Positions 1,251 to 36,310 of a stretch of DNA of 45,102 nucleotides are shown here, piece after piece; positions within the stretch are counted from its first letter, which is position 1, and each line of letters opens with the position of its first letter. The position numbers and the translations under genes were made by a program. This DNA comes from Candidatus Nomurabacteria bacterium (lineage in GTDB: Bacteria > Patescibacteriota > Minisyncoccia > Phycocordibacterales > UBA10002): NCBI GenBank assembly GCA_943349725.1, contig CALQZP010000002.1, positions 1-45,102 of the forward strand, read 5' to 3'. The notes under the pieces are model-generated. The model saw only the letters and a list, made by a program, of their open reading frames with translations. It was not told where the DNA came from and made no database searches.

Positions 1251-1976
1251 TTACTTTTTCTGGCGAGATTGTTTCCACTCGTCTATCTTGGCTTGGTGTC
1301 CGGAGAGGAGCACCTTCGGCACACGAAGTTTTTTTCCGTTGTATTCAAAAATCTCGGGGCGCGTGTAGACATCGGGGCTTGCGATACGGCTTTCCTCGCG
1401 TGAATTAAAATCGCCGAGCACGCCTTCCACTTGGCGTGCAATGACGTCTATCATAAGCATCGCGGGAAGTTCCCCACCGGTAAGTACGAACGGCCCGACG
1501 GACACCTCATCAACCTTTCCGCCAGAGGCGGATCCGCCTCTGGCGGAGAATGCTTTTTTCACCCGCGCGTCTATCCCCTCATACCGTCCGCAGATAATGA
1601 TGATGTCGGAGGACTTCGCATACTTCACTCCCGTTTCGTTCGTAAATTGTTTTCCGCTTGGCGTCAGCCACACAATAGGAGTTTTTAGTTTGAAGTTTTT
1701 AGTTTGAAGTTTTTTTGTGTTCTTATTTTTAACTGTAAACTCTAAACTTTTAACTGCTTCAGCTACCGCTTTGATAACCGGTTCGGCTTGAATGACCATC
1801 CCCGGTCCCCCGCCGTACGGTGCGCGGTCAATCCGCTTATGTTTATCTTCGGTGAAATCGCGGGGGTTGTAAAACTTCACTTTTATCTTTTTATCCTCAA
1901 TGGCGCGTTTCAAGATGGACTCCCCGAGGTAGGAGTCAAAAGCGTGCGGGAAGAGGGTTATGATGTGGAAAGTCAT
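1251..1976 (-). CDS. trmD: tRNA (guanine37-N1)-methyltransferase TrmD
   Basis: N-terminus FHIITLFPHAF, plus APYGGGPGMV and VLTGGELPAM, are typical TrmD motifs. The gene carries two repeat-derived in-frame insertions (1518-1547 and about 1678-1765). Confidence 0.93.
   Translation of the reverse strand: MTFHIITLFPHAFDSYLGESILKRAIEDKKIKVKFYNPRDFTEDKHKRIDRAPYGGGPGMVIQAEPVIKAVAEAVKSLEFTVKNKNTKKLQTKNFKLKTPIVWLTPSGKQFTNETGVKYAKSSDIIIICGRYEGIDARVKKAFSARGGSASGGKVDEVSVGPFVLTGGELPAMLMIDVIARQVEGVLGDFNSREESRIASPDVYTRPEIFEYNGKKLRVPKVLLSGHQAKIDEWKQSRQKK
1518..1547. repeat. 30-bp double-hairpin palindrome in-frame inside trmD
   Basis: TCCGCCAGAGGCGGA followed by TCCGCCTCTGGCGGA, a perfect palindrome that encodes ARGGSASGGK. 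The same hairpin pair occurs upstream of the GIY-YIG gene (26648-26676). Confidence 0.85.
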
Positions 1977-8846: not shown

Positions 8847-8935
8847 TGCTTTTGTTGTGGTGAACTAATGCGAACGACATCCGCCGCCCGCTTCACCTCA
8901 CCGCACACTACAACGAAAAACAGCAAACTTTTCAA

Positions 8936-8975
8936 ATTACCCCAAGTAACACCGATAGGCGCTACTTGGAGTAAT
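8936..8975. promoter_or_regulatory. Palindrome copy 1 (downstream of PaaX-like gene 1)
   Basis: ATTACCCCAAGTA-acaccgataggcgc-TACTTGGAGTAAT. It lies 13 nt past the stop codon, in the same orientation and with the same spacer as the copy at 9603-9644. Confidence 0.6.
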
Positions 8976-8988
8976 TAGCGAATGAGCG

Positions 8989-9602: not shown

Positions 9603-9644
9603 AATTATACCAAGTAACACCGATAGGCACTACTTGGTATAATT
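9603..9644. promoter_or_regulatory. Palindrome copy 2 (operator/promoter of PaaX-like gene 1)
   Basis: Perfect 14-bp arms AATTATACCAAGTA / TACTTGGTATAATT with a 14-nt spacer. The minus-strand TATAAT (9604-9609) lies 6 nt from ATG 9597. Confidence 0.6.
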
Positions 9645-21909: not shown

Positions 21910-22080
21910 AGTTGGAGATAGACATTAAAAAAACACCACTGCTTAGAGTAGCTTCATTCTATCAAAATAGCCTTACAAAAGAAAGCTATTTTTAACCCCA
22001 CAATGGGGACAAACTTATCCCCATACCCACGCTTCAAAACACTAGTATTCGCTCTTATTTGTAATTTACATTCCGACAAA

Positions 22081-22116
22081 ATTACCACTTATCAGCGGTC
22101 GCTGATAAGTGGTAAT
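22081..22116. promoter_or_regulatory. Palindrome copy 1 (downstream of PaaX-like gene 2, about 170 nt upstream of the gyrB start)
   Basis: Perfect 17-bp arms ATTACCACTTATCAGCG-gt-CGCTGATAAGTGGTAAT, 5 nt past the stop codon. Confidence 0.6.
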
Positions 22117-22121
22117 GATAT

Positions 22122-22721
22122 TTAGTGCCTTGTGATCTCCAGCCCGAAATGTTTGCGCAGCCATCCATCGTTTTCAATATATTCGGCAATGATGTAGAGA
22201 ATCTCAACCCCAATATGATAATCGGCCTTAAGTAGCGAAAGAAAATCTTCGCAGTCATGCGGATAGACCCACACACTATGGTGCAGATGTACAAACCCAA
22301 CACTCTGAAGCGTCCACCGAAGTAATTCCCGAACCTTCTTTCTTTTCTCTTTTATATCAAAACTGACCAGTCTCCACTTCCCATCCCACTTTTCGGGCTT
22401 TGAGAGCTGGTAATCCGCACGTTCTATTTCTGAAATCCGCTTTTCACCAACCTTGGTTAGTGTGATAAAACCTTTCTTGTCCACTATAACAAATCCTGAT
22501 TTCTCCAACAGCTCTACTGAACGACTCACCGTAAATCGAAAAGGGCGTTTCGTCTTTATCCATCCAAACTCCTCCAACACGCGCAATGTATTAGGGGCGA
22601 CCAGCGCCATAGAAAGTCCTCCTGCCGCTACGATCGCATAGAGTACTGCTTTTTGCACTACAGCAATTCTACTCTTCCGTTCCTTCTTCTTCTTTAGTCC
22701 CTTAACCTGACTTGCTCGCAT
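22122..22721 (-). CDS. PaaX-like winged-helix regulator, paralog 2
   Basis: WDGKWRLVSFDIKEKRKKVRELLRWTLQSVGFVHLHHSVWVYP, with an N-terminal wHTH-like segment. Paralog of 8989-9597. Confidence 0.7.
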   Translation of the reverse strand: MRASQVKGLKKKKERKSRIAVVQKAVLYAIVAAGGLSMALVAPNTLRVLEEFGWIKTKRPFRFTVSRSVELLEKSGFVIVDKKGFITLTKVGEKRISEIERADYQLSKPEKWDGKWRLVSFDIKEKRKKVRELLRWTLQSVGFVHLHHSVWVYPHDCEDFLSLLKADYHIGVEILYIIAEYIENDGWLRKHFGLEITRH

Positions 22722-22730
22722 GTTCTCACT

Positions 22731-22764
22731 TTACCACATATCAGCGACCGCTGATATGTGGTAA
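22731..22764. promoter_or_regulatory. Palindrome copy 2 (operator upstream of PaaX-like gene 2)
   Basis: Perfect 16-bp arms TTACCACATATCAGCG-ac-CGCTGATATGTGGTAA, 9 nt upstream of ATG 22721. Confidence 0.6.
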
Positions 22765-35583: not shown

Positions 35584-36054
35584 ATGCCAAGAAAAGAACT
35601 ATCAAAAATCAACCCTAAGGAGCGGCAACGAATCCTCGATGAATTTTGGACGATGATAGCGCTTCTAGATACAAAGGATCAGGTGAAAAACTTTTTTAAG
35701 GATTTACTTTCGGCGAGTGAGTCGGTTATGCTGGCGCGTCGTATTCAAATTGCCAAGCTTCTCCTGTCCGGAGTCGGCTACGATGCTATAGAAAAGCGAC
35801 TGGGAACCGGACCGACCACTATCGCTTCGGTACATCGCTGGCTCCAGGGAGGCTTTGGTGGCTATGCGAGTGCGATACCGAAGCTTACGCAGGAAATCGA
35901 GAGGCGAGAGAAAGTCGCAGAGCGGCGCGAGGAAGAAAGCGTCCCTTTAAGTTCAAGATGGATGCGAAAAAAGTACCCGCTTCATTACCTTCTCGTAAAC
36001 ATGATGAACGACGATGACGAAGATTTGAGCCCTCCCCGCAAGATTTCAGGCTAG
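35584..36054 (+). CDS. TrpR-like YerC/YecD family DNA-binding protein
   Basis: FFKDLLSASESVMLARRIQIAKLLLSGVGYDAIEKRLGTGPTTIASVHRWLQGGFGGY matches the YerC/YecD pattern. Start is placed at ATG 35584. Confidence 0.75.
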   Translation: MPRKELSKINPKERQRILDEFWTMIALLDTKDQVKNFFKDLLSASESVMLARRIQIAKLLLSGVGYDAIEKRLGTGPTTIASVHRWLQGGFGGYASAIPKLTQEIERREKVAERREEESVPLSSRWMRKKYPLHYLLVNMMNDDDEDLSPPRKISG

Positions 36055-36092
36055 GCTAAACTGATCTGACCTCCGACCTAACCTGTTTTATT

Positions 36093-36120
36093 TTCTACTA
36101 TACTACAGAGTATAGTAGAA
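36093..36120. promoter_or_regulatory. Second identical copy of the 28-bp palindrome, downstream of the TrpR-like gene
   Basis: The 28 bp are identical to 35542-35569, starting 38 nt past the stop codon. Confidence 0.6.
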
Positions 36121-36310
36121 AATGTTTGAGGCAAATTAACGTAACCACTTATTCCGTTTAATTACTTATCCCCAATGTACCCAGAAAAGGTTCTGCGTGT
36201 TTCCTTCCCCCGCGCCTTGCATTTACTATTCTTTTCCTTGTTGCGGAAGAGGGGGCTCTGTAACGCTTTCAACATAGTACTAGGTAGTATAGCAGATCTA
36301 TTCGGAGATA

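Follow-up and report, generated by a model that had tools for sequence, protein, structure and literature searches.

Examination of a 45,102-nucleotide stretch of a Candidatus Nomurabacteria genome (GCA_943349725.1, contig CALQZP010000002.1, positions 1 to 45,102; hereafter the window) reveals, between pheT and gyrB, a gene for a small PaaX-like protein, here termed mini-PaaX, that is bracketed by two copies of a long perfect palindrome, one just ahead of its start codon and the other directly past its stop codon (Table 1). The same layout, with a private palindrome in each case, recurs around every paralog of this gene in the genome and around most of the 175 relatives surveyed; the proteins covary with their palindromes, and both copies are conserved between species. 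We consider it probable (roughly 0.6) that mini-PaaX is a self-repressing regulator that reads its long palindrome with two domains, a winged helix and a Cas2-like domain, and that the second site is an intrinsic part of the module. No published description of a palindrome-bracketed mini-PaaX layout was found in the literature searched.

The upstream palindrome lies 9 nt 5' of the ATG at 22721, and the downstream one lies 5 nt past the stop codon (22122-22124, minus strand) and 172 nt ahead of the gyrB ATG (21909), which is on the same strand. An earlier sequence-only reading of this DNA had described perfect palindromes of 34-36 bp at these spacings, a distance of about 170 nt to the gyrB start, and a second paralog with a palindrome pair of its own; recomputation returned the same coordinates and spacings, and the pair of the second paralog was located as well (Table 1). 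The half-site pattern occurs four times in the window as against 0.30 occurrences expected from shuffled sequence, and none of 100 shuffles reached four.

The genome that contains the window (0.92 Mb in 66 contigs; G000 in the genome comparisons) is that of a Parcubacteria-type bacterium of the candidate phyla radiation (CPR). It encodes seven PaaX_M genes, each of which (7/7) lies between a private pair of palindromes of 32-44 bp, and this genome-wide survey of the paralogs, together with most relatives, bears out the earlier suggestion that the bracket is a property of the family. Among 41 related genomes, the family is present at 1-8 copies per carrier in all 20 members of the genus and in 8 of 20 other families of the order; by a strict rule, 56 of these 81 genes have both palindromes, while 19 possess a single one and 6 lack them altogether, and several of the incomplete brackets belong to genes at contig ends. 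In a wider sample of the order the family occurs in 55 of 151 genomes, with 1-10 copies each, and the 94 further genes obtained from it include 49 with both palindromes and 34 with one. Upstream and downstream half-sites of one gene are 88% identical, as against 48% between different genes. As a separate matter, many family genes are found close to a contig end, a few hundred bases away at most (such as G003:C7:76-633, G019:C12:130-687, G016:C73:269-799 and G060:C41:62-271), which suggests that long palindromes, or strain variation at mini-PaaX loci, break assemblies.

The only Pfam match of mini-PaaX is PaaX_M (PF20803, 'PaaX central Cas2-like domain'; E 3e-19, 69.3 bits against a cut-off of 24, residues 110-183). 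Pfam finds neither PaaX_C (PF08223) nor a recombinase or transposase domain in the protein, and both PaaX_C and Cas1 are absent from the whole genome. The PaaX-type winged helix (PF07848) is unlisted by Pfam at E values up to 1. A search of the Protein Data Bank with the single sequence gave weak matches only, and a profile of 60 sequences was used instead; its best solved relative is E. coli PaaX (8a39), in an alignment that begins at the recognition helix and extends to the Cas2-like domain, with the recognition helix and wing placed on 8a39 residues 56-142. In the AlphaFold2 model (mean pLDDT, the predicted local confidence score, 77.7; 81-95 in the Cas2-like domain at residues 111-190) the chain folds into a winged helix, with its helix at residues 61-74 and its wing at 78-88, and then into a beta-alpha-beta-beta-alpha-beta domain. 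Foldseek matches this model to PaaX 8a39 first (198 columns aligned), then to Rv0674 (3kfw), and thereafter to Cas2 (5xvn_F, 5zyf) and VapD chains, while the scores against the Pfam CRISPR_Cas2 family, 14.1 and 18.1 bits, fall under the cut-off of 23.8. A Cas2/VapD-like fold of the C-terminal segment had been guessed earlier from the residue pattern; PF20803, the model and the structure matches to 8a39, Cas2 and VapD all prove the guess right, and the Cas2-like fold of PaaX_M is already recorded in Pfam and so is not new. Within this domain the residues F121, D122, E125, R131, R135 and S149 are invariant in the family, as is the F-D-I-x-E stretch after beta1, where E. coli PaaX has L-S-E-G.

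Comparison of the proteins with their sites connects each of the two domains to a different part of the palindrome. In the clade of the window protein, paralogs are 70-75% identical overall and nearly identical in their Cas2-like domains, and differ in their recognition helices and palindrome arms: the helix RPFRFTVSRS is paired with TTACCACATAT arms, and the helices SAKDTISKS or NPRDTISKS with TACACTAT arms. Distance between arms correlates with distance in the recognition helix and wing at a Spearman coefficient of 0.37, against 0.14-0.25 for other protein segments, figures that are purely descriptive given that the pairs are non-independent. A plain mutual-information analysis of protein columns against DNA positions is dominated by clade structure, except for the pair formed by residue 148 and the palindrome centre. 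This residue, a histidine at the tip of the beta2-beta3 hairpin in the window protein, is K (15 genes), R (14) or N (3) where the centre is a symmetric CGATCG, and H (9) or Q (14) where it is a symmetric CGGCCG, with zero overlap between the two sets over 55 genes; asymmetric CGG/TCG centres, the type found in the window, mostly go with N, D, H or K. These counts come from a set of 157 distinct proteins. On a tree built without the tested columns, the centre changed at least 10 times. Tree-based independent contrasts were under-powered with 74 genes, which gave three contrasts; with 94 genes added, all six well-supported contrasts of residue 148 against the centre agree (6/6, p 0.03), as do all those of GC against AT centres (8/8, p 0.008). 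Because residue 148 tracks the central base pair, these results are evidence for a Cas2-like dimer that would sit on the dyad and be coupled to the central step, either by contact or through DNA shape.

The related genome G008 has an orthologous cassette between pheT and gyrB, whose protein is 89% identical to mini-PaaX by alignment (91% by search). The synonymous divergence (dS) of the cassette gene between the two genomes is 0.77 and its nonsynonymous divergence (dN) 0.063 (dN/dS about 0.08), as compared with a dS of 0.87 for pheS and of 1.5 or more for pheT and gyrB. A dS near the pheS value combined with a low dN argues that the cassette gene has been vertically inherited under purifying selection, and its dS shows no excess similarity to G008 of the sort that would point to recent transfer. 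G000 and G008 agree at all 64 arm positions of the two palindromes (64/64), identity in the intergenic DNA ahead of the upstream copy is 56%, and the central dinucleotide GT/AC (22098-22099 and 22747-22748) is flipped in both copies. Judging from this alignment, both palindrome copies are under sequence constraint, and the centre drifts within CG-RY-CG in the clade to which the window protein belongs. The cassette has the same orientation relative to pheT in five species (G000, G008, G009, G010 and G015). This gives no support to a site-specific recombination cassette of the lox or dif kind, the excision or inversion it leads one to expect not being seen among those five. In other species the pheT-gyrB spot holds a TrpR-like cassette (G016) or opposite-strand genes (G014 and G002), or is empty (G020). 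In G009 (locus L040) a relic of the last 43 pheT codons (DGKKPFAFSLVF...KGKGCEVR, then stop; a protein-level match) lies about 70 nt past the downstream palindrome of the cassette, which argues that the cassette and a new pheT end were acquired together, through recombination within the flanking gene.

Inspection of the region ahead of the start codons across the family shows that in 48 of 156 genes exactly 6 nt separate the end of a TANNNT element from the start codon, the mean at other offsets being about 8 genes, and that 23 of these 48 carry a TG extension. The dyad of the upstream palindrome is commonest at 25-29 nt before the start codon and stands at 26 nt in the window gene, for which a leaderless promoter covered by the upstream palindrome is predicted from sequence; with the promoter in that place, autorepression by occlusion is predicted in turn. 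At the same dyad offset in the downstream copies TANNNT is only weakly enriched (15 of 124), and an outward promoter was rejected as their main role.

The leaderless start also bears on the notion that the palindromes act as hairpins of RNA or single-stranded DNA, which might lend stability to the mRNA 3' end or serve as targets that the Cas2/VapD-like domain, working as an RNA-binding or RNase module, binds or cuts. There are RNases among the Cas2 and VapD relatives found as fold matches, the downstream copy would be transcribed unless transcription stops earlier, and long perfect stems would fold. However, with a leaderless start the upstream copy would lie outside the mRNA, the central 4-6 nt are self-complementary, which a loop does not need, winged helices read duplex DNA, and solo copies of the palindromes are present in divergent promoter regions; a hairpin function is thus highly improbable.

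With regard to the downstream copy, the sequence-only reading had proposed that it might allow the regulator to gate the gyrB-kinase operon. The copy does stand close to gyrB on the same strand, and a protein bound there could stop read-through from pheST or from the cassette into gyrB. However, gyrB has a promoter of its own, TTTTGATAGAAT (TGATAGAAT element), about 46 nt upstream of its ATG, and this promoter and its leader are kept both in genomes with the cassette (G008, G009) and in genomes without it (G016, G014, G002), as well as in weaker form in G020. The centre of the downstream palindrome is about 150 nt upstream of the start site of this promoter, and a downstream copy is present in every paralog whatever adjoins it, facing the 3' end of a convergent gene at the paralogs on contigs C11 and C27. 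The conserved gyrB promoter and the presence of downstream copies everywhere argue that the copy belongs to the cassette and is no gyrB operator; the gating proposal therefore did not hold up, and an operator function at gyrB is very unlikely, while a roadblock effect on read-through into gyrB is possible. In addition, the gyrB upstream region (window 21950-22020; loci L039-L044) is conserved across the genus and contains GTCCCCATT..GGGG, and a hairpin in it, AAAATAGC-N13-GCTATTTT, overlaps the -35 position of the TGATAGAAT promoter; this region may be a gyrase-specific control element.

The position of the downstream copy directly past the stop codon, and the TTTTG that follows the stem in the window gene, would also fit a plain intrinsic terminator that resembles the upstream site by chance or through shared origin. 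Yet runs of at least five T in the next 8 nt follow only 8% of the downstream copies across the family, no more than on the antisense side, and the GC content of these copies is 37% as against 48% for the genome, the real terminators of which combine GC-rich stems, loops of 3-4 nt and T-runs. In each paralog, moreover, the sequence of the downstream copy matches that of the cognate upstream site. A terminator and nothing else, which the earlier reading had named as the outcome that would count against a binding site, is by these figures extremely improbable.

Further copies of the palindromes are dispersed through the genome, in which 105 long palindromes were found as against none in a shuffled copy. 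The palindrome of each paralog has 1-4 further copies, all of them intergenic, and most of these solo copies adjoin a stop codon in tandem gene pairs. Those of the window type are perfect at C5:15210 and C29:8767 and imperfect at C47:379 and C4:18162. The C5 copy is flanked by divergent recG-like and suhB-like genes, whose -10 elements are 30-55 nt away from it. Of 13 genus genomes with the aminopeptidase gene, only G000, G008 and G014 have the C29 copy at this spot, and G014 is without a close relative of the window protein. A degraded eighth paralog (C30:683-1109, in the region 529-1109) has lost its Cas2-like core and retains, about 120 nt upstream, a perfect palindrome, CAGCTTTTATTTACGGCCGTAAATAAAAGCTG, which is the cognate type of paralogs in G014 and G017.

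In light of the above, we infer that mini-PaaX acts as a self-repressing, dimeric and sequence-specific DNA binder of the PaaX lineage that would operate without an effector domain. Self-complementarity reaches the very centre of the site, which is what a symmetric dimer on duplex DNA would lead one to expect; one dimer could occupy each long palindrome, with its two winged helices reading the outer arms and its Cas2-like dimer lying on the dyad, and residue 148, at the tip of the beta2-beta3 hairpin, might there sense the central base pair. The upstream palindrome would cover the extended -10 element, with transcription starting at or beside the ATG, and the bound protein would repress its own gene by denying access to RNA polymerase, in the manner of PaaX at Px. 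The downstream palindrome would most likely serve looping that strengthens repression, or else a roadblock that shields the gene from transcription nearby. Solo copies elsewhere, few in number, could be further sites of the same protein, and the paralogs would have diverged in both protein and site, such that each came to possess a private set of sites.

Several observations weigh against this proposal of a self-repressing two-domain binder: 1) the N-terminal part of the AlphaFold2 model is of low confidence; 2) the invariant Cas2-type residues D122 and E125, missing from E. coli PaaX, are not explained by a pure binding role; 3) perfect symmetry over 34-44 bp exceeds that of most operators; 4) four solo copies lie between convergent genes and have no promoter to regulate; 5) orphan perfect palindromes in the genome match the sites of paralogs known only in relatives, and thus persist without a cognate protein.

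Some of these points would be accommodated if the palindrome-gene-palindrome unit were a mobile or selfish cassette, in which a solo palindrome is cut or nicked at its dyad by the Cas2-like domain and acquires a copy of the gene during repair or recombination, so that a full palindrome is recreated on each side and solo copies are the empty sites. Besides the invariance of D122 and E125 and the tracking of the dyad by a residue of the Cas2-like domain, such mobility would agree with the patchy spread of the family over the order (55 of 151 genomes, 1-10 copies each), the contents of the pheT-gyrB spot that vary between species, the solo sites that are present or absent between species, and the orphan palindromes that match paralog sites of relatives alongside one degraded paralog. 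However, the cassette has kept its place and orientation after pheT in five species, its dS of 0.77 resembles that of pheS and gives no sign of recent transfer, and its gain in G009, as indicated by the pheT relic, came about by recombination in the flank and not by insertion at a palindrome. No recombinase or transposase domain accompanies it, and a search of phages, plasmids and the viral contigs of IMG/VR found no relatives of mini-PaaX.

The TrpR-like gene of the window (Table 1) is of particular relevance to this question. Like mini-PaaX it has its own palindrome before the ATG and after the stop codon, as well as solo copies, which lie on contigs C3, C10 and C18, and a relative of it with a different palindrome occupies the pheT-gyrB spot in G016; unlike mini-PaaX it has an unrelated fold (Trp_repressor, PF01371) and no Cas2-like or other nuclease-like domain. 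That the same bracket surrounds this unrelated gene argues that the bracket is not tied to the Cas2 fold, which weakens mobility by a Cas2 nuclease and favours a design common to small autoregulated DNA binders of such genomes. Taken together, these considerations make the mobile cassette unlikely. Quite unlikely, and offered as speculation, is a specific form of it, in which the Cas2-fold dimer is a sequence-reading and possibly cutting module on its own dyad and the units spread by cleavage of solo palindromes followed by templated repair; were it true, Cas2-based self-propagating cassettes would be an undescribed class in CPR bacteria, and cleavage of this kind would supply a possible evolutionary bridge from transcription factors to Cas2.

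Among known systems, the closest is PaaX of E. coli and Pseudomonas, the phenylacetyl-CoA-responsive repressor (8a39, 3l09), which is the best match of mini-PaaX in both sequence and fold and likewise has an N-terminal winged helix with the Cas2-like dimerisation domain PF20803 after it. TGATTC-N27-GAATCA is the site that E. coli PaaX recognises, and through steric hindrance this protein represses the Px promoter of its own gene (PMC9493321); according to a 2022 review the structure of the PaaX-operator complex was unsolved at that time. The putative operators of mini-PaaX resemble this site in their long-dyad geometry, with TTACCAC-N20-GTGGTAA at the window gene and TTAGCA-N24-TGCTAA in paralogs. 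Mini-PaaX differs from PaaX in that: 1) it is without the PaaX_C effector domain; 2) it keeps the Cas2-type F-D-I-x-E in place of L-S-E-G; 3) its site is palindromic throughout its 34-44 bp, with a centre that covaries with a residue of the Cas2-like domain; 4) its gene lies between two sites, and as many as 10 paralogs occur in one genome, all with private sites of their own. Its neighbours across the loci (pheT, gyrB, smc, rnc, dnaJ, cysS, proS and pyrH) include no paa gene, no genome-wide search for paa genes having been made.

With Cas2 (5xvn, 5zyf) mini-PaaX shares the ferredoxin-like fold, the conserved Asp after beta1 (D122) and the Q-x-S-V motif. In the Cas1-Cas2 complex the central part of the prespacer duplex is occupied by the Cas2 dimer and its two ends by Cas1, an arrangement that resembles the one proposed here, in which a Cas2-like dimer in the centre would have a winged helix on either side. 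Unlike Cas2, mini-PaaX scores below the Pfam threshold (14 bits against 23.8), is fused to a winged helix and comes from a genome without Cas1; and whereas Cas2 contacts the DNA backbone, the reading proposed here would be sequence-specific. A further parallel is offered by REP/REPIN elements and their RAYT genes, which are also flanked by their own palindromic repeat, of one type per paralog, with dispersed intergenic solo copies mostly near gene ends. In contrast to RAYT, mini-PaaX is not an HUH/Y1 transposase (only PaaX_M was found in it), and in contrast to REP/REPIN solo copies number only 1-4 per type, REPIN doublets are absent, and the sites are conserved between species instead of expanding.

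Table 1. Positions of the mini-PaaX cassette, its paralog and the other features discussed. Coordinates are those of the window unless a contig (C) is given.
Feature	Position	Strand	Basis
mini-PaaX gene, 199 aa; N-terminal winged helix and Cas2-like PaaX_M, without PaaX_C	22122..22721	-	Pfam, AlphaFold2, Foldseek
Upstream palindrome TTACCACATATCAGCG-AC-CGCTGATATGTGGTAA; putative operator, overlaps the predicted promoter of the gene	22731..22764	.	perfect 16+2+16
Downstream palindrome ATTACCACTTATCAGCG-GT-CGCTGATAAGTGGTAAT; proposed second binding site	22081..22116	.	perfect 17+2+17
Predicted extended -10 TGgTAAAGT, then 6 nt, then ATG	22728..22736	-	read from sequence
Recognition helix and wing (residues ~57-90); proposed arm reader	22452..22553	-	covariation with arms
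Cas2-like (PaaX_M) domain, beta-alpha-beta-beta-alpha-beta	22173..22394	-	AlphaFold2 model, alignment
Codon for His148, immediately N-terminal to the invariant Ser in Q-x-S	22278..22280	-	covaries with central base pair of palindrome
gyrB's own -10 TAGAAT with TG extension, outside the cassette	21956..21961	-	46 nt before gyrB ATG
Paralog 1, same family, 202 aa	8989..9597	-	PF20803, E 2e-19
Paralog 1 upstream palindrome; right arm holds TGGTATAAT, then 6 nt, then ATG	9603..9644	.	sequence
Paralog 1 downstream palindrome	8935..8976	.	sequence
Trp_repressor-family (TrpR-like) gene	35584-36054		PF01371, E 1.7e-14
Perfect palindrome of the TrpR-like gene, TTCTACTATACT-ACAG-AGTATAGTAGAA	35541-35570 and 36090-36123		
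Further dispersed palindromes, examples	C5:12923, C29:3260, C58:1015, C15:10609, C7:13610		
Further dispersed palindromes, examples	C21:6494, C21:8882, C4:30737, C31:1791, C34:626		
Further dispersed palindromes, examples	C3:27886, C33:1945, C3:20770, C58:2275; window 1516-1549		

Beyond the palindromes described so far, the genome harbours at least four more dispersed families of long perfect palindromes, namely AACATTCCAACATTCT.., ATAGCTACTCTTTACTT.., CTATTCGCCAATTCGCG.. and TTTCCGCCAGAGGCGGA/TCCGCC.., examples of which are listed in Table 1. Furthermore, at C6:5466-5565, C35:2283-2415 and C50:1237-1313 two palindromes stand 20-60 nt apart in one intergenic region, one being of the type of a resident paralog and the other of an orphan type.

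CPR bacteria, or Patescibacteria, have very few recognisable regulators, and with up to 10 copies of mini-PaaX in genomes of less than 1 Mb the family may rank among their main sequence-specific DNA binders. Its private protein-site pairs constitute a natural table of specificity, in which recognition helices are set against arms and residue 148 against the central base pair, and from which it could be predicted, in testable form, how the PaaX lineage reads long operators. A Cas2 fold coupled to DNA sequence would also bear on the origin of Cas2 itself, and the bracket shared with the TrpR-like gene may reflect a general rule by which regulator genes of such compact genomes are built.

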